Notes under the pieces: generated by a model | Seen by the model: the letters and a program-made list of their open reading frames with translations, nothing else | What the model was told of the DNA's origin: nothing | Database searches by the model: none | From: Candidatus Aenigmatarchaeota archaeon | GTDB taxonomy: Archaea; Aenigmatarchaeota; Aenigmatarchaeia; GW2011-AR5; JAGGXF01 | Assembly (NCBI GenBank): GCA_021163205.1 | Contig: JAGGXF010000003.1 | Location: 1,200 to 65,199 of the forward strand | Direction of reading: 5' to 3' | Length of the DNA: 64,000 nt | Shown here: one piece after another, positions 4,122 through 57,620 of the stretch | How positions within the stretch are numbered: the first letter of the stretch is position 1 | How the letters are laid out: every line of letters begins with the position of its first letter | Made by a program: the position numbers and the translations under genes

Positions 4122-4940
4122 CTATAATATCGTAAACACGGTATAACCGATAGAGCACAAGACAAAAGAATGTTTCAGACCGCCTGTTAAAGAACCCTCA
4201 GCCATCTGTCCTATTGCCAAACCCGCGAATATACCTTGAATAACTATAAGATGCATAAAAAGTGTTTTAAAAACCTGTTGCATCTGACCCACATCTACAT
4301 CAGATTGGTATTGAAAAGCGGGCACTAAAAAATTTGAAAGACCCCACATAACACCAAGGAACACAAAGAATATGATATAGCCATTTATCATCTGTGAATA
4401 AACTCTTGATGAACGTTCCCTCCTTATGTTTTCTATTTCTTGTGCAGATTCGGCAACAGCTGTCAAAACCTCACCAATGTTTCCGCCGGAGCGATGCGTC
4501 TCATTTATCGTTTTAACAGACCTTCTTACGGTAGGGCTGTTTATCTGATTCGCAAAATTCGTCAAGACCTTCTCAAAGCTTATCCCCCAATCTATCTTTG
4601 CTATAATTTGTTTGACGTAAGGATTCAAAACACCATAATCGTTTGATTTTGTGGCCTTGACTGCCTGCGGCAATGTCATGCCAGCATTGATGTTTGCAGT
4701 AATGTCTCTTAGAAAAATAGGGAAAACTGCGTCTATCTTTTTTACCTGTAAATACTTCGCATATCTTATCCCAAGTGGAACGCCAAGAACTATCAGCGCT
4801 GATAAAAAATTCAAAGGAGCAAACCAACGAGTCCCCATAAACATGGTAAAGTTTATACTTATGAGCGAAAAGCCTATAATGAAAGCTATAACTGTCGTAT
4901 TGCTTATCTTTATGTTTTCTATTGATTTCATTATAGACAT
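4122..4940 (-). CDS. type II secretion system F-domain membrane protein (FlaJ/TadC-like, C-terminal half)
   Basis: 272 aa, polytopic. Its soluble segment (...SPTVRRSVKTINETHRSGGNIGEVLTAVAESAQEIENIRRER) is typical of the T2SS-F/FlaJ cytoplasmic domain. Confidence 0.7.
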   Translation of the reverse strand: MSIMKSIENIKISNTTVIAFIIGFSLISINFTMFMGTRWFAPLNFLSALIVLGVPLGIRYAKYLQVKKIDAVFPIFLRDITANINAGMTLPQAVKATKSNDYGVLNPYVKQIIAKIDWGISFEKVLTNFANQINSPTVRRSVKTINETHRSGGNIGEVLTAVAESAQEIENIRRERSSRVYSQMINGYIIFFVFLGVMWGLSNFLVPAFQYQSDVDVGQMQQVFKTLFMHLIVIQGIFAGLAIGQMAEGSLTGGLKHSFVLCSIGYTVFTIL

Positions 4941-9076: not shown

Positions 9077-11572
9077 GTGTCGGAGATGGAAATCGGGACA
9101 CATAACAAAGCTTATGAAAATGGACCTAATTTAGATAGTGATTCAACTGAGATCATAAATAAGGTACTTTCTACGAATAAAACCAACCCATTTGAATACA
9201 TCTCTCAATTGAAGAACTATTCTGAATTCTTTGAAAATAAAAACGAAAAAGAGCTCCTTAAAGAAAGATTACCAGAAATTGTTGGTTATAATAATGTATA
9301 TGAAGAAATCACAGACAGAACAACAGCCGCGCTCGCTCTTATAAAAGATGCCATCGCCATCAAAGACTATGACGCGCTGAAGAGCTTCTCTAAGGAATTT
9401 GGGATATCATACGAAAAACTTCTCAAACTGGGGGAGAATATGGATGAGATAGAAAAGACCGTCCGAAGATATATTAGAGGCCTAGTAAAAGAGGAGCTAT
9501 CAGAAGCCAGGGAAAAAGTTAGAAACGAATCAGCGTTGTTGAAAAGGCTCGAAGACCCCGCATATGAAGCAGAGCTTATGAAATATCCGGCCTATCAGTG
9601 GGGTAAACTCTTGAAAGAACTTGAAGATGGGGTAAACAAAGGTTACATAAAGACAGATGATTATGGAAGATACATTCTCGAGCATAATGGAGAGCCGTTC
9701 GCATTGGTTGACCCAGAATACGGTATAATAACAGACAAACCAAATAAAATCTTCGGATGGGACCCAACCTACGACAGACTGGGAAACTATGCAGTTCCCA
9801 CAAAACAGTATCTTATTGATGTTGACAGAGAAGTTGAAATACCAGACTACATTATTGAGGACGTCAAGAAAGATTCTGAGCTAAAAGAAGTGAAAACGAT
9901 AAGAGACCTTCTCAAACTAAGGCCAAAAATTGCAAAGAAATTGGGCATATATGGAGAAAAACACATAGACCCGAAAAAACTAGAAAGCTTCATCTATCTT
10001 TCTGGCAAAAAATCAAGTCTTTGGAAAAAGATAGCATCAGTTCTCATTCCTGCAGCGTTTGTTACTGCAGGTCTTGGCTGTTTGAATGGTCCAAAAGAAA
10101 CAAACCCAACCACAACACCGCAGGTAACTACAGCGCCACCGACTGATACAACACCGCCCACATCAGCAGCGCCAACAACACCAGTGAAAACGCCATCGAC
10201 AACTCCACACGTGACAACAACCGTACCGCCAACAACAACCCCAGCCCCGGACTATGTAGGACCTTATCTGGATGTTTTGGGATTGCCAAGAACACCCGAG
10301 ACAGAAAAAGAAATTAATGAATACTTGATTGAAAAGAATATCAGTCCAGAAGATGTTGGAAAGGTTTTGAAGGAGTTATCAAACTATGGTTTTGTGTCTG
10401 ATAAAGAGGTTCATGATTGGATAACAGACGAGAGACTAACCATACCTGAGATAGCAAATATGTACGAACTAATAGAAGACGGTGCATCCACTGATGTTGC
10501 ACTTTTCTTGGGAGAATATAATGATTGGATAAAGAAGCTGCCGAATTATGAAGAGGTTTTGAAAACATTAAATAACCTCGACCCGAGAGATAAGAAATAT
10601 CTGTTTATACATCCCATGACCGAAGGACGTGTAGAGGCGGCTGATGTCTTCTCGGATTGGTGTAATGGTCAGTATGGTCGGTATGTTACTAATAAAGAAA
10701 ATATAACAGAATTTTCTGCACTTTCAATAATTTATTATTTACCAGCCAGCGAAGGACCAAAGAAAAAAATACTTAGCAGAATGGAAGAAAATTTTAAACA
10801 ATATCCGAAAGATAGACTTGACATGGTGGCAAAAGACCGAAGGGCGTTGTTCTTCCTTTTATACAATATGCACCCTACCCAATTAAATTTTGGATTTGAT
10901 ATAGATAATCAAACAGAAAGTATTATATATCCAGAAACTATCGAAAAAGCCCAGGATGCTGGAAAAATTGTAGATTTGAATCCAGATAATTTAACAGACG
11001 ATGAACTTGGTAGAATTTTCTACTATGTTGCCACAACTGTCAATGGGGGCAGAGAGCTGAGGGGGGATGCAAAAAAACTAGACAAGGCTTTTGATTTGTT
11101 TTTGAAAAGAGAAGAAGATTTTGGAGACTGTCAAGTTGACTCTGCTATATTTTCAAATATTATAAACAATAGCATTCCTTTTGATGGAGAGGGTAATTCA
11201 ATCGCCATAACAACTTTAAATTATGAGAAATTGACTGAAAGATTCGCACCAAGAGATCACGCCTCCCCACTAATTTTAAAAGAGGATAAGAATGGGGACA
11301 TAAATTGTTATGTTCCTTGGTATGATAAGCATAAGAAAAAAATTATTCTTGTTCGTGCAAAATTTTCAGGTTCTTATAGATTTATTTCTCCATATCTACT
11401 TTTAATTGAATATGGAACAGATGAGTATGGAAAGCCTATGCCTATAGTGCATCAATATATAAAAGGGTCTCGAACAGAATTAATAAAACTGCCTGAAGTT
11501 GATATAGATTCGGAGGGACTTGTAAACGAAATCTTTAAGTCAGGCGAAAAATTAATCAGAGCCTGGGATTGA
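9077..11572 (+). CDS. large single-pass membrane protein with Pro/Thr-rich linker; function unknown
   Basis: 831 aa. Has an N-terminal ~315-aa coiled-coil-rich domain and a TM helix (IASVLIPAAFVTAGLGCLNG). A ~60-aa low-complexity T/P linker (TTTPQVTTAPPTDTTPPTSAAPTTPVKTPSTTPHVTTTVPPTTTPAP) follows, then a ~430-aa C-terminal domain. The start may be GTG 9077 or ATG 9086. Confidence 0.6.
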   Translation: MSEMEIGTHNKAYENGPNLDSDSTEIINKVLSTNKTNPFEYISQLKNYSEFFENKNEKELLKERLPEIVGYNNVYEEITDRTTAALALIKDAIAIKDYDALKSFSKEFGISYEKLLKLGENMDEIEKTVRRYIRGLVKEELSEAREKVRNESALLKRLEDPAYEAELMKYPAYQWGKLLKELEDGVNKGYIKTDDYGRYILEHNGEPFALVDPEYGIITDKPNKIFGWDPTYDRLGNYAVPTKQYLIDVDREVEIPDYIIEDVKKDSELKEVKTIRDLLKLRPKIAKKLGIYGEKHIDPKKLESFIYLSGKKSSLWKKIASVLIPAAFVTAGLGCLNGPKETNPTTTPQVTTAPPTDTTPPTSAAPTTPVKTPSTTPHVTTTVPPTTTPAPDYVGPYLDVLGLPRTPETEKEINEYLIEKNISPEDVGKVLKELSNYGFVSDKEVHDWITDERLTIPEIANMYELIEDGASTDVALFLGEYNDWIKKLPNYEEVLKTLNNLDPRDKKYLFIHPMTEGRVEAADVFSDWCNGQYGRYVTNKENITEFSALSIIYYLPASEGPKKKILSRMEENFKQYPKDRLDMVAKDRRALFFLLYNMHPTQLNFGFDIDNQTESIIYPETIEKAQDAGKIVDLNPDNLTDDELGRIFYYVATTVNGGRELRGDAKKLDKAFDLFLKREEDFGDCQVDSAIFSNIINNSIPFDGEGNSIAITTLNYEKLTERFAPRDHASPLILKEDKNGDINCYVPWYDKHKKKIILVRAKFSGSYRFISPYLLLIEYGTDEYGKPMPIVHQYIKGSRTELIKLPEVDIDSEGLVNEIFKSGEKLIRAWD

Positions 11573-14339: not shown

Positions 14340-15779
14340 TTATCCTTTCATAACAGCCAAAGGCACAAGCTTTGCAACAAGCTTTGCTATGCCCAAAGCA
14401 TCTGAAACGCGCACAACTTCGTCTATATCTTTGTAAGCTTTTGGCGCTTCCTCTGCCAAAACCTTCCACGAAGCAGAACGAACAAGTATATTCTGCTTTT
14501 CCAACTCTTCCTTAACCTTTTCACCACGCGTGGTTCTTAACATCTGTGCCCGACTAGAGACCCTGCCTGCGCCATGCGCCGTAGAGCCGAATGTAAGATT
14601 CATCGCCTCTTTTGTTCCATGAAGCACATAAGATGCAGTACCCATTGAACCGGGAATAAGAACAGGTTGTCCAACTTTTCTGTACACAGCAGGAACATCT
14701 TCATGTCCTGGTGGAAAACTTCGTGTCGCACCTTTTCTGTGAACATAAACTTTTCTTGTTTCACCGTCTATTTTATGCTTCTCAACTTTGCCAATGTTGT
14801 GACAAACATCATAAACAATATGCATACCTAGGTCTTCTGCGCTCTGGCCAATTACTTTTTGGAAAGCCTCGCGTGTCCAGTGGGTTATTAATTGACGATT
14901 GCACCATGCAAAGTTGGCAGCACATTTCATAGCTTCATAGTACTCTGCACAGGTGTCTGTTCCGGCCGGAGCATAAATGAGCTCTCGGTCCGGAAGCTTA
15001 GAAACGATGTCATTAAATTTATTTTCCATCTCCCTCAGATAATCTGTACAAACTTGATGACCAAATCCCCGAGAACCGGTATGAATCATAATACAGACTT
15101 GACCTTTTTCAAGACCAAAAACCTTAGCAACATCCTCGTTAAATATGTCTTTTATAAGTTGTATCTCCACAAAATGATTTCCTGCACCTGTTGTTCCTAT
15201 TTGCTCTTTACCGCGCTTAAGAGCCTTGTCAGAAACAGTGTCTGTATCAGCAAGCATGCTTCCATTCTCTTCTAGAAACTTCGGGTCTTCCTTCCAAGCA
15301 TATCCTTGTTCGACGGCCCACTTAACGCCTTTAGCAAGCGGCTCTAAAAGTTCTGACTTGCTCAATCGCAGCTTACCTGCCCGCCCAACCCCAGACGGTA
15401 TGTTTTTGAAAATCGTGTCCAGAAGCTCTTTGAGGTGTGGCTTAATATCGCTAAGCGTAAGGTTTGTGCGAATAATTCGAACGCCACAATTGATATCAAA
15501 ACCTATACCTCCGGGCGAAAGCCCACCTTTTTCATAATCAAGAGCAGCAACACCACCTATTGGAAAACCATATCCCTGATGACAGTCAGGTAATGCTATT
15601 GAATACTTATATATTCCAGGCAACGCAGCAACATTTTTAGTCTGCTCTATTGTGTTGTCCCCCTTTATTTTTTCAATAAGCTTTTCAGATGCAAAAATCC
15701 GACCAGGAACATTCATTTGACCTTCCTTCGGTATCTCCCAGACCATATCATTTATCTTTTTCAATTCCATAACCACCAC
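14340..15779 (-). CDS. rtcB: RNA-splicing ligase RtcB
   Basis: 479 aa. Motifs GIGFDINCGVR, HTGSRGFGHQV and NHAGAGR-like. Full-length with no intein. Confidence 0.9.
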   Translation of the reverse strand: MVVMELKKINDMVWEIPKEGQMNVPGRIFASEKLIEKIKGDNTIEQTKNVAALPGIYKYSIALPDCHQGYGFPIGGVAALDYEKGGLSPGGIGFDINCGVRIIRTNLTLSDIKPHLKELLDTIFKNIPSGVGRAGKLRLSKSELLEPLAKGVKWAVEQGYAWKEDPKFLEENGSMLADTDTVSDKALKRGKEQIGTTGAGNHFVEIQLIKDIFNEDVAKVFGLEKGQVCIMIHTGSRGFGHQVCTDYLREMENKFNDIVSKLPDRELIYAPAGTDTCAEYYEAMKCAANFAWCNRQLITHWTREAFQKVIGQSAEDLGMHIVYDVCHNIGKVEKHKIDGETRKVYVHRKGATRSFPPGHEDVPAVYRKVGQPVLIPGSMGTASYVLHGTKEAMNLTFGSTAHGAGRVSSRAQMLRTTRGEKVKEELEKQNILVRSASWKVLAEEAPKAYKDIDEVVRVSDALGIAKLVAKLVPLAVMKG

Positions 15780-15796: not shown

Positions 15797-16237
15797 CTAT
15801 GTGTCGACTATAACTTGAACTCTATATCCACCGTCTGTTTTTTTTATCTCCATCTTATGATACGTTATTGCTTTGACCTCTCCACGTATCTCGTGCCTAG
15901 CTAAATCTTCTCCACGTGCAACAGCATCCAAAAGCCATTTACTATCGGCACGAGTTATAGTTACAACAAATTCACCAAAAACAACATGCTCCGTGTCAAA
16001 TATGAATAAAATCTCTGACAACCAGTCATAGAGCAGTGCCTTATCGTCTCGAGCTTCTACATGAATTTTTCTTTCCATCTTTTTATTTATCTTCGATGTA
16101 TCTGTTATTATTTCTGTCATCGCCAACGCTGCATTAGCAAAAGCCTGTTCCAATGTATTGCCAAAAGCCGCAAAAGCACGATCTGCTGTCGCGATGTCAA
16201 GAAACTCATATCTTTTCTCCATTTTATCATACCACAA
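15797..16237 (-). CDS. archease (RtcB activator)
   Basis: 146 aa. MEKRYEFLDIATADRAFAAFGNTLEQAFANAALAM is the archease N-terminal motif. Located immediately upstream of rtcB. Confidence 0.8.
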   Translation of the reverse strand: MWYDKMEKRYEFLDIATADRAFAAFGNTLEQAFANAALAMTEIITDTSKINKKMERKIHVEARDDKALLYDWLSEILFIFDTEHVVFGEFVVTITRADSKWLLDAVARGEDLARHEIRGEVKAITYHKMEIKKTDGGYRVQVIVDT

Positions 16238-17399: not shown

Positions 17400-19631
17400 T
17401 TGAGTGATTATCTCTTTTTTAAATTTTGTTTTCAAGTTATTTCTATGCTTGTTAGAAAAGCCCGCCTACCAAATGAAATTACCGAGATATTCGAAAGCAG
17501 AGGAATAAAAAAATTTAACGAACCACAACAAATGGCGATAGAGTCTGGTATTCTCGAGGGAGAAAATATTGTTGTTGCGTCTCCAACAGCTTCTGGAAAA
17601 ACCATTATTGCAGAACTTGCATTCGTAAAAAAATTTCTGGAAAAAAGTGGAAAAACGGTCTATGTTGTTCCCCTAAAAGCGCTGGCAATGGAAAAATACG
17701 ATGAATTTAAAGTATATGAAAAAATAGGAATGCGTATTGCCGTCTCCATTGGAGACTATGATTCATCTGACGAGTGGCTGGAAAAATATGACCTTATAAT
17801 ATGTACATCCGAAAAGCTTGATTCGATTTTGCGCCACAACCCAACCTGGACTAGAGACATAGCGCTAATAATAATAGATGAAATCCATCTTTTATCTGAT
17901 ATGAGTAGAGGACCGACACTAGAGGTCGTGATTACAAGGCTAAGAAATCAGACAAGAAGTCAAATCTTGGCACTGTCCGCCACAATATCTAACGCAGAGG
18001 AAATCTCACAATGGCTCAATGCAAAGCTTGTGAAAAGCAATTATAGACCAATAAAACTTGAGAAAGGGATCTTTTTCAAAAACAAAATAGATTTTGGCCA
18101 TAAAACCATTGAAATAAATGACACCGAGGCAAAACCAAAAGATGATTTAATTCTTCTTGTTCAGGACACCATAAAAAGGAAGAAGCAATCGCTTATTTTT
18201 TTATCATCGAGGAGAGCAGCAGAATCTGCCGCAGAAAAACTTGGGAACGAAATAGGAAAAATGATAAAAAACAAAAAGGAGCTTGAAAAAATTTCAAGAA
18301 AAATATTGAACGTTCTCACGCACCCGACCAAGCAATGTAAACGGCTTGCGCGATGTGTAAAAAATGGGATAGCATTCCATCATGCCGGGCTTGCGGCTAT
18401 GCAGAGAAAGATTATAGAAGACTATTTCAGAAAAGGTCTGATAAAGATTATAACAGCTACGCCAACTCTAGCCATGGGTGTGAATCTTCCGGCGTGGCGC
18501 GTAATAATAAGAGATGTGAAGCGATACAGCGGCTCTTTTGGTTATTCATTTATATCTACCCTTGAAATACAACAAATGTGTGGAAGAGCGGGCCGGCCAA
18601 AATATGACAAAGAAGGACAGGCGATATTAATAGCGAAAAACGAGGACGGAATAGAAAAGCTCAGGCAAAGATATATTATTAGCGAAGCGGAGCCTGTGTT
18701 GTCAAAACTTTCTGTTGAGCCCACATTGAGAATGCACATTCTTGCCCTGATAGCGGATCACACGTGCTCATCAGATAGTGAACTGTTCAATTTTTTTGAC
18801 AAAACCTTTTTCGGTTATCAATATGGTTCTAAAAGTGAGATTAAGAGAAAGATAGATGAAATAATATACCAGTTAAGAGACTTTGGGTTTGTAGAATTTT
18901 CTGACAGGTCAGAAAAATCATTCATAAAGAGTAGTTTTATTCCTGCTTTCAACATCTCCACAGAGAAAAGGCTCAGTCCGACCAGGATTGGTAAACGGGT
19001 AGCACAGCTATACATAGACCCTATAACAGCAAAAAACATAATAGACAGAACCAAAAGAATAAAAAAAGACCTAGGAGATTTTGCACTTGTTGATATTATA
19101 TCTGATTCTGTTGAAATGTATCCACCACTAAATGTTAAGACAAAAGAATATGAAGATATAGAATCGCTCATCTCAAAAAAAGAATTGTACAGAGAACTGC
19201 CAGAACTGTGGGACATTGAATATCAACAATTTTTAGAATCGTTCAAGCTCTCTCTACTTCTCGGTGATTGGATGAACGAGATGGGAGAAGATAAAATATT
19301 GGAAAAATATGGCATACCCCCAGGCATACTCTATCAAAAGTTAAGAAATGCGGAATGGCTGCTATATGCAGCACAGGAGCTCGCAAAAGTTATGAAAAAT
19401 CGGAAAGCGGCCTCATTGCTGAATAGGGCAAGAATGAGAATAAGATATGGTGTCAGGTCTGAGCTATTTCCGCTTATAAGAATAAAGAACATAGGGCGCG
19501 TAAGAGCAAGACTGCTCTTTGACGCTGGCGTAAAGACCGTGGCAGATATCAAGAAAGCACCGAAACAAAAACTAATAAAAATTCTGGGCAATAAGTTAAC
19601 TGATAAAATACTTGAAGAAGTTAAATCTTAG
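17400..19631 (+). CDS. hel308: Hel308/Hjm-type Ski2-like DNA helicase (likely start at M 17445)
   Basis: 743 aa. Walker A VASPTASGKT and DEIH box. C-terminal domains are typical of Hel308. Confidence 0.8.
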   Translation: MSDYLFFKFCFQVISMLVRKARLPNEITEIFESRGIKKFNEPQQMAIESGILEGENIVVASPTASGKTIIAELAFVKKFLEKSGKTVYVVPLKALAMEKYDEFKVYEKIGMRIAVSIGDYDSSDEWLEKYDLIICTSEKLDSILRHNPTWTRDIALIIIDEIHLLSDMSRGPTLEVVITRLRNQTRSQILALSATISNAEEISQWLNAKLVKSNYRPIKLEKGIFFKNKIDFGHKTIEINDTEAKPKDDLILLVQDTIKRKKQSLIFLSSRRAAESAAEKLGNEIGKMIKNKKELEKISRKILNVLTHPTKQCKRLARCVKNGIAFHHAGLAAMQRKIIEDYFRKGLIKIITATPTLAMGVNLPAWRVIIRDVKRYSGSFGYSFISTLEIQQMCGRAGRPKYDKEGQAILIAKNEDGIEKLRQRYIISEAEPVLSKLSVEPTLRMHILALIADHTCSSDSELFNFFDKTFFGYQYGSKSEIKRKIDEIIYQLRDFGFVEFSDRSEKSFIKSSFIPAFNISTEKRLSPTRIGKRVAQLYIDPITAKNIIDRTKRIKKDLGDFALVDIISDSVEMYPPLNVKTKEYEDIESLISKKELYRELPELWDIEYQQFLESFKLSLLLGDWMNEMGEDKILEKYGIPPGILYQKLRNAEWLLYAAQELAKVMKNRKAASLLNRARMRIRYGVRSELFPLIRIKNIGRVRARLLFDAGVKTVADIKKAPKQKLIKILGNKLTDKILEEVKS

Positions 19632-19632
19632 C

Positions 19633-19726
19633 GGGTCTGTAGTCTAGCTAATGCGCAAGCATCTAGAATGGTCTAGGATCGGGCCTTCGGGAGGCTCAGA
19701 CAGGAGTTCAAATCTCCTCAGACCCA
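19633..19726 (+). tRNA. tRNA-Pro(CGG) with putative 20-nt non-canonical intron in the D-loop (19649-19668)
   Basis: Acceptor GGGTCTG/CAGACCC. T-arm AGGAG-TTCAAAT-CTCCT. Anticodon stem-loop GGGCC-TTCGGGA-GGCTC (anticodon CGG, U33, G37). The D-region is 20 nt too long: AGC[TAATGCGCAAGCATCTAGAA]TGGTCTA. Confidence 0.7.
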
Positions 19727-19727
19727 T

Positions 19728-20381
19728 ATGTTAAAGGCGGTCATATTTGATATGGATGGTGTTATTGTAGACAGCGAAGACTACCACGCATCCACAGAAC
19801 AAGAAGTGCTCAGAAATATTGGGATTAATGTCTGTGTAGAAGAGCTGAAAATGGATCTCGGAAAATCAGAAAAGGATTTCTTTAGGAGTGTACTAACTAG
19901 ACATAGAAAGACGGAAAACATTGAGGAAACAATTAGAAAACTCATAAAAGAAAAACACAAGACTTACCTAAAATTATTAAAAAACGCGAAACCCGTTCCC
20001 GGTGCCATCGAACTTGTAGAAAAACTCAGAGCTGCGGGAGTTAAAACGGCAATTGCCACAAGTTCAATAAGAAAGATGTTAGAAATAGTAATAGAAAACT
20101 TCAACCTTGAAAAATACCTTGATGCAGCAGTATGTATAGACGATGTGAAAAAAGGCAAGCCAGAACCTGATTTGTTTTTGGAGGCCGCCAAACGGATTTC
20201 AGTACAACCAAATGAATGCGTAGTTATAGAAGATGCGGCCAATGGTATAGAGGCAGCTAAGCGTGCTGGAATGAAAGCCATTGGATTTATGAGTAAGAGC
20301 AAACAAGATTTCTCAAAAGCAGACCTCGTGGTTAATGATTTGAGAGAGATAACCATAGAAAAAATTAGTAGATTATTTTAA
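19728..20381 (+). CDS. HAD-superfamily hydrolase (beta-phosphoglucomutase/phosphatase-like)
   Basis: 217 aa. Motif I at the N-terminus VIFDMDGVIVDS. Also carries motif III and motif IV (EDAANGIEAAKRAG). Confidence 0.8.
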   Translation: MLKAVIFDMDGVIVDSEDYHASTEQEVLRNIGINVCVEELKMDLGKSEKDFFRSVLTRHRKTENIEETIRKLIKEKHKTYLKLLKNAKPVPGAIELVEKLRAAGVKTAIATSSIRKMLEIVIENFNLEKYLDAAVCIDDVKKGKPEPDLFLEAAKRISVQPNECVVIEDAANGIEAAKRAGMKAIGFMSKSKQDFSKADLVVNDLREITIEKISRLF

Positions 20382-57475: not shown

Positions 57476-57620
57476 GCTGGGGTACCCAAGTCATGGTCTT
57501 TTTGACCACTTGAATGGCCAAAGGGGCAGGTTCATTTGACTCCTGACCAAAGGTCAAATGATGTCATACTTAAGATCCTGTGACTTAGTGTCTGCGTGGG
57601 TTCAAATCCCATCCCCAGCA
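57476..57620 (+). tRNA. class II tRNA (probably tRNA-Leu, anticodon likely CAG) with putative 20-nt D-loop intron (57499-57518) and ~38-nt anticodon-loop intron
   Basis: Acceptor GCTGGGG/CCCCAGC plus A73. Intact T-arm GTGGG-TTCAAAT-CCCAT. D-arm CCC-AAGTCATGGTC[TTTTTGACCACTTGAATGGC]CAAA-GGG is collinear with the tRNA-Ser D-arm once the insert is removed. Anticodon stem GCAGG/CCTGT encloses ~45 nt (TTC...AGAT). Long variable arm GACTTAGTGTCTGC. Isotype assignment is uncertain. Confidence 0.55.

Follow-up and report, generated by a model that had tools for sequence, protein, structure and literature searches.

The window, by which we mean the whole 64-kb stretch of DNA that was analysed, is a segment of an archaeal genome. 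Pfam searches of about 60 ORFs place TFB, RpoD, L7Ae, Cbf5, Trm1, GINS, primase and an ATP-dependent DNA ligase in it; glycerol-1-phosphate-dehydrogenase-like, PcrB, GGPP synthase and UPP synthase genes and an archaeal type-IV pilus cluster are also present. A separate curiosity of this otherwise well-annotated region is an 831-aa ORF at 9077–11572 (+), which has no Pfam match at E ≤ 1e-5.

At 19633–19726 on the forward strand, an archaeon of the Aenigmarchaeota (DPANN) carries a genuine gene for tRNA-Pro(CGG). Gene order around it runs RtcB, archease, GGPP synthase, Hel308 (17400–19631, +), tRNA-Pro, HAD, DUF371 and GCD14/TrmI. The protein encoded by the adjacent HAD gene shares 98% identity with a protein of 'Candidatus Aenigmarchaeota archaeon ex4484_14', and the best Hel308 homologues, at 48–59% identity, are labelled Aenigmarchaeota or Aenigmatarchaeota. 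The ATG of the HAD gene, at 19728, does adjoin the tRNA as the sequence-only reading had described; the distance is a single base (T19727) rather than the 2 nt then given. In two relatives, automatic gene calls start the HAD ORF inside the tRNA-Pro gene (L009, 3001–3747; L010, 2088–2834), giving a product of 248 aa compared with 217 aa in the window, probably a mis-annotation that stems from the undetected tRNA. On the other flank, several Aenigmarchaeota homologues of Hel308 (P0158, P0174, P0185, P0186, P0208, P0216 and others) are 1170–1265 aa long and carry the intein/LAGLIDADG domains PF14528 and PF14890, a domain content that indicates intein insertions in some relatives, but not in the window's own Hel308.

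The tRNA-splicing ligase RtcB (14340–15779, −; PF01139, 571 bits) and its activator archease (15797–16237, −; PF01951, 147 bits) are adjacent to one another 3.4 kb upstream of the tRNA gene and form the predicted ligation machinery. The order RtcB, archease, GGPP synthase, tRNA and HAD is kept in the relative L009. The tRNA-splicing endonuclease EndA (tRNA_int_endo) was not found by Pfam among the about 60 ORFs of the window.

The anatomy of the tRNA can be read directly from the sequence. The acceptor stem is GGGUCUG/CAGACCC, followed by U8 and A9 and closed by discriminator A73; the D-stem is GUCU/GGAU; the anticodon arm GGGCC-UUCGGGA-GGCUC places CGG at 19688–19690 with G37 beside it; a 4-nt variable loop precedes the T-arm AGGAG-UUCAAAU-CUCCU. 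Every helix is intact, and U8, A14, G18G19, U33, G37 and the UUCAAAU T-loop are all there. The Rfam tRNA model RF00005 matches the gene at 44.4 bits (E 3.4e-6; gathering score 29), aligning end to end on the same coordinates (model positions 1–71) with a 28-nt insertion in the D-loop. The match and the sequence bear out the earlier assignment to tRNA-Pro(CGG) with a drawable acceptor stem, CGG anticodon arm and T-arm. The gene specifies a 94-nt precursor body without an encoded CCA. The stretch GATAAAATA at 19602–19610 (+), its centre about 27 nt upstream of G1 and within the 3' end of the Hel308 ORF, is a possible archaeal TATA-like box for this gene.

ARAGORN reports zero tRNAs on the raw 64-kb window; the insert thus hides the tRNA-Pro gene. 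Its intron option, which models anticodon-loop introns only, returned nothing useful on the precursors, and Rfam at E ≤ 1 across the window detected no family besides tRNA. A scan of the 64 kb for a T-arm with a matching acceptor strand yielded two candidates only: tRNA-Pro and a locus at 57476–57620 (+).

The interruption of the D-loop is very probably an archaeal endonuclease-type, or bulge-helix-bulge (BHB), intron of 19 nt lying between positions 17 and 17a of a functional tRNA-Pro(CGG). The 94-nt precursor folds with a minimum free energy (MFE) of −37.1 kcal/mol, a value matched by none of 200 shuffles (z = −3.1), and its MFE structure keeps the acceptor, anticodon and T arms while U11–G15 pair with C31–A35, leaving a 3-nt bulge CUA and an AUGC/GCAU helix capped by a GCAA loop. 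In motif terms, the 5' strand of the central helix H is CUAG at 19644–19647 (tRNA positions 12–15), which pairs with the intronic CUAG at 19663–19666 in both the MFE fold and the BHB scan. The 5' bulge CUA (19648–19650), which is also the 3-nt bulge of the MFE structure, contains the predicted cut U19649/A19650. The inner helix h' (19651–19662), 4 bp of AUGC/GCAU around a GNRA tetraloop, GCAA, appears in both MFE and centroid structures. The 3' bulge AAU (19667–19669), which the scan leaves without a closing outer helix, contains the predicted cut A19668/U19669. All of these elements are on the forward strand, and between the two cuts lies the predicted intron A-AUGC-GCAA-GCAU-CUAG-AA (19650–19668; gene nt 18–36 in the scan).

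The insert therefore shows the features by which BHB introns are recognised: a 4-bp H with a 3-nt bulge on each strand, both predicted splice sites within the bulges, and an intronic h'. The strict hBHBh' form, with an h of at least 2 bp, is not present; the scan finds only a lone U11.G38 pair (h = 1), and since the outer helix amounts to one G.U pair, the modelled motif is of the relaxed HBh' class. A comparable motif (4-bp H, 3-nt bulges, h' of at least 4 bp, and a loop of 8–11 nt left behind) arose in only 1.1% of 20,000 shuffles of the 30-nt D-loop. A lenient BHB scanner yields many chance matches, and BHB geometry alone is not decisive. Group I and group II self-splicing introns are ruled out, the insert being 19 nt long and the Rfam intron families unmatched.

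The predicted boundaries follow from a rule by which cleavage falls between the second and third base of each 3-nt bulge. Applied to tRNA-Pro, the rule takes out 19 nt (19650–19668) and leaves a 75-nt tRNA with the exons joined as ...GUCUAGCU|UGGUCUAGG... The 5' exon (19633–19649, +) would then carry the acceptor 5' strand, U8 and A9, the D-stem strand GUCU and D-loop residues A14, G15, C16 and U17; the 3' exon (19669–19726, +), delimited by the sequence, Rfam and ARAGORN on the spliced form, would start with the D-loop remainder UGGUCUA and continue through the D-stem 3' strand, anticodon arm, variable loop, T-arm and acceptor 3' strand to A73. The resulting D-loop, AGCUUGGUCUA, has 11 nt with A14, G18G19 and A21 in place, and ARAGORN recognises the 75-nt spliced sequence as tRNA-Pro(cgg) with a score of 117.6.

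The same intron with another boundary would lose 20 nt (19649–19668) and join the exons as ...AGC|UGG..., leaving the 10-nt D-loop AGCUGGUCUA. This is how the sequence-only reading had drawn it; the 20-nt string that it named, TAATGCGCAAGCATCTAGAA, is indeed present at 19649–19668, and what the symmetric rule changes is the extent of the insertion (19 nt, 19650–19668) and, with it, the 10-nt D-loop expected after removal, which becomes one of 11 nt. The 74-nt product of the longer removal scores equally in ARAGORN (117.6), and the shorter spacing, AGUUGG, is found in L021 and L030, orthologues without a D-loop intron. Its cost is an asymmetric cut, after the first base of the 5' bulge and after the second of the 3' bulge. 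For the 30/31 intron of the tRNA-Leu gene described below, which has a strict hBHBh' motif, the symmetric rule reproduces a perfect 5-bp anticodon stem with a CUUAAGA loop, and for the 59/60 introns of orthologues it reproduces 7-nt T-loops. For three different D-loop introns it gives an identical 11-nt D-loop pattern, AG[C/U]UUG[G/A]UCUA, whose AG[C/U]UUG[G/A] portion fits the D-loops without an intron in L024 (AGCUUGG), L026 (AGUUUGG) and L028 (AACUUGG) at the junction. Orthologues alone do not settle the matter, as genes with no D-loop intron show both AGYUUGG and AGUUGG. On balance the 20-nt boundary is improbable, and cuts at 19649|19650 and 19668|19669 are the predicted ones.

The second candidate in the window is a tRNA-Leu(UAA) gene (57476–57620, +) with two introns, identified by the BHB scan and by ARAGORN after splicing. 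It had been described earlier as a Leu-like gene with a D-loop intron at a similar position, and the description holds: a 22-nt D-loop intron (57493–57514) sits at the same gene position as that of tRNA-Pro (nt 18), within a motif made up of H CAAG/CUUG, bulges UCA and AAU, an h' of 5 bp and an h of 2 bp. The second intron, of 37 nt (57531–57567), lies at 30/31. The spliced form is 86 nt long and scores 116.9 in ARAGORN as tRNA-Leu(taa); the unspliced gene is missed by ARAGORN, and by Rfam even at E ≤ 1.

Orthologues of the tRNA-Pro gene were sought by exact search of metagenomes for its T-arm/acceptor 3' end and in contigs encoding HAD and Hel308 homologues. Ten distinct tRNA-Pro(CGG) genes were obtained, mostly in a shared Hel308/GGPP-synthase/GCD14/UPPS neighbourhood. 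A scan of genome contigs for Hel308 gave only distant relatives, from DPANN and elsewhere (39–45% identity), and no orthologous tRNA. One Nanoarchaeota MAG contig (L003, JBBSVT010000079.1) carries a 119-nt tRNA-like gene at 1786–1904, whose acceptor strands match and whose D-arm is followed by a long insertion, and a partial Rfam tRNA match lacking an acceptor stem at 2068–2127; the two probably represent additional disrupted tRNA genes, here of a different DPANN lineage.

Intron content differs widely among the orthologues. L005–L008 and L012 have a tRNA gene identical to that of the window, with the 19-nt D-loop intron and no other. In L009–L011, where the HAD protein is 73% identical, the identical 19-nt intron is accompanied by 50 nt at 37/38. 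In L013 the same D-loop site is occupied by an intron of 131 nt (H GUAG/CUAC, h' of 12 bp, bulges UUU and AAU), and a further intron lies at 37/38. In L014, L015 and L016 a 64-nt D-loop intron lies two bases upstream, at 15/16, with H GUCU/GGAC, bulges AGU and AAU and, in L014, an h' of 5 bp; these genes also have a 37/38 intron. L024 has no D-loop intron (D-loop AGCUUGGUA) and one intron at 37/38; L026 likewise has none in the D-loop (AGUUUGGUA) and seems to be interrupted at 24/25, 37/38 and 59/60; the sole intron of L021, 31 nt long, is at 59/60, and L028 and L030 have no introns at any site. Rfam at E ≤ 1 missed the multi-intron orthologues L013 and L014. L024 and L026 were spliced by homology; the splice solutions that the scanner and ARAGORN offered for these two were spurious, with wrong anticodons. 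The L026 locus (GCA_039091535.1, JAWCLW010000004.1, about 4224–4375) appears to have a 24/25 mini-intron of 11 nt, GUAG-AAA-UCAU-CUAC-AAU, without an h' helix, and its 59/60 intron is 31 nt long.

Comparison at the D-loop site bears directly on the predicted motif. In L013 exon position 12 is G, not C, and its two partners, D-stem position 23 and the H strand of the intron, have changed to match. H thus covaries in a compensatory manner, CUAG/CUAG in the window vs GUAG/CUAC in L013, a comparison that draws on a single independent same-site intron (L013), together with that of L014, which is shifted, and that of tRNA-Leu, the nearest relatives' introns being identical to that of the window. The sequence-only reading had proposed that the intron should be given up if no BHB could be folded around it; the BHB core is present in both the fold and the scan, and its H covaries with an orthologue. 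The BHB core and the orthologue comparison together support the earlier proposal of a D-loop intron at a non-canonical position.

The same comparison weighs on the idea that the hairpin is retained, so that the mature tRNA has an expanded D-loop with an extra stem-loop of structural rather than intronic character. A short, stable, GNRA-capped insert would suit such an element. Against it, 0, 19, 64 or 131 nt occur at or near the site between identical or near-identical exons, as is typical of an excised spacer; an exact 3-4-3 BHB geometry frames the insert, with an H strand that covaries with exon position 12; and in a D-loop of 30 nt, G18G19 would be set apart from A14, to the detriment of the D/T-loop tertiary core. 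Retention is accordingly very unlikely.

Eight of the sequences, spliced or naturally free of introns, fit one cloverleaf. Pairing holds in 99.4% of cells, and changes on both sides are seen in 12 of the 21 pairs; none of 500 shuffles equals the real set, and slid alignments reach at most 50% paired, although the spliced sequences were made by the BHB rule and homology, which leaves the test partly dependent on the model. Set against this, the notion of a decaying pseudogene, or of an assembly or insertion artefact without function, is barely credible. Standard finders miss the gene, and a view of 64 kb of genome allows for a second tRNA-Pro(CGG) copy elsewhere. Yet the identical sequence recurs in at least five independent assemblies and samples, helices and conserved positions are intact, and the gene is syntenic across Aenigmarchaeota with strong compensatory covariation; DPANN genomes are, moreover, small, and their tRNAs are normally single-copy. 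The reading that we favour remains a functional tRNA-Pro(CGG) gene whose BHB intron is predicted to be excised.

The proposed pathway to the mature tRNA would begin with the precursor, in which C12–G15 of the D-arm would pair with the intronic CUAG in place of the D-stem, giving a 4-bp helix with the bulge CUA on one side and AAU on the other, together with a 4-bp h' capped by GCAA. EndA would cut after the second base of both bulges (U19649|A19650 and A19668|U19669), and RtcB with archease would ligate the exons. The D-arm could then refold into the D-stem GUCU/GGAU and the 11-nt D-loop, and RNase P, 3' trimming and CCA addition would complete a 75-nt tRNA (78 nt with CCA). Both cleavage and ligation of this precursor are predictions from the motif, and they call for a host EndA of broad specificity, since the outer helix is missing and the enzyme would have to tolerate a motif without it. 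Two considerations count against the intron reading at this step: BHB formation competes with the D-stem, and, by analogy with characterised enzymes, classical α4 and α'2 EndAs would be expected to cut the relaxed motif poorly (PMC3241643, PMC5829648).

The bulges offer a further point of comparison. The 3' bulge is AAU in four of the four D-loop introns compared (tRNA-Pro, 19667–19669; tRNA-Leu, 57513–57515; L013; L014), perhaps because the endonuclease prefers it or because the introns share an ancestor. AAU is also seen in the 24/25 mini-intron and the 59/60 intron of L026. As the Pro and Leu genes share an intron site, AAU is invariant and the orthologues vary from zero to three introns at no fewer than five sites, one could envision an Aenigmarchaeota-specific D-loop intron hot spot 5' of G18G19 (15/16 to 17/17a), a product of intron mobility or of an unusual EndA specificity. 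This is a speculative and rather unlikely proposal. Were it true, the introns might be actively mobile, for example through reverse splicing by endonuclease and ligase and subsequent retro-insertion; alternatively, selection might favour introns because they hide tRNA genes from integrating elements; and the EndA of Aenigmarchaeota might be distinctive in its specificity for HBh' motifs whose bulge is AAU.

Whatever the cause, the tRNA-Pro(CGG) series, with zero to three introns at 15/16, 17/17a, 24/25, 37/38 and 59/60, provides a record of gain, loss and sliding in a little-studied phylum. There are practical consequences for annotation, as ARAGORN sees none of the two window tRNAs and Rfam one of the two. 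With such genes missed by the finders, DPANN genomes such as those of Aenigmarchaeota will look tRNA-poor unless BHB-aware tools are used, and missed tRNAs affect both completeness estimates and claims about decoding capacity. For enzymology, the relaxed motif predicts a broad-substrate Aenigmarchaeota EndA. The established picture of archaeal tRNA splicing is left unchanged; the locus is mildly interesting for a D-loop site that recurs in both detectable window tRNAs, for a 3' bulge that is always AAU and for the speed with which introns turn over among orthologues.

Non-canonical BHB introns, those of the D-loop included, are textbook archaeal biology (PMC4090602, PMC8450103), and ARMAN-2 is a DPANN precedent for disrupted tRNA genes (PMC3239211). 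As far as the compared parts of three surveys reach, the tRNAs of ARMAN-2/Micrarchaeum and of Thermoproteales resemble those described here in several respects: introns at many non-canonical positions (for example 20/21, 22/23, 25/26, 29/30, 30/31, 45/46, 53/54, 56/57 and 59/60), up to three introns per gene, fast gain and loss among relatives, invisibility to standard finders, and an intron load that goes with a broad-specificity EndA (PMC3239211, PMC4090602, PMC8450103). Position 17/17a is absent from the positions given in those parts, and Aenigmarchaeota are likewise absent from the surveyed sets as presented there (PMC3239211, PMC4090602, PMC8450103). The tRNA-Pro intron is thus a known phenomenon in a phylum where, as far as the compared literature shows, such introns appear to be uncatalogued. 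Among DPANN archaea, EndAs with an 'L3' loop go with heavily disrupted tRNA sets, and incomplete tRNA sets point, according to the same authors, to unidentified disrupted genes (PMC5829648).

Two individual tRNAs provide the closest parallels. The pre-tRNA-Thr2(UGU) of Aeropyrum pernix has a D-loop BHB intron that EndA alone cuts in vitro, and the tRNA matures in vivo; this intron is cut more slowly than introns at 37/38, and a euryarchaeal α2 enzyme cuts it poorly (PMC3241643). Like tRNA-Pro, it is an endonuclease-type D-loop intron in which BHB formation competes with the tertiary core; its excision by EndA requires neither guide RNA nor extra proteins, whereas excision from tRNA-Pro is predicted. 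The settings also differ: A. pernix is a crenarchaeon with an (αβ)2 EndA bearing a Crenarchaea-specific loop and acting on what is described as a canonical BHB, while the present case is a DPANN archaeon with a 19-nt intron and no outer helix. The pre-tRNA-Glu(UUC) of Methanopyrus kandleri has a D-loop intron at 20b/21 in a relaxed HBh' motif (PMC5829648). Its intron lies 3' of G18G19, whereas that of tRNA-Pro, at 17/17a, lies 5' of them, and the phyla are different; what the two have in common is a relaxed HBh' motif within the D-loop and a family that can also bear a 37/38 intron, as L009, L013 and L014 do here.
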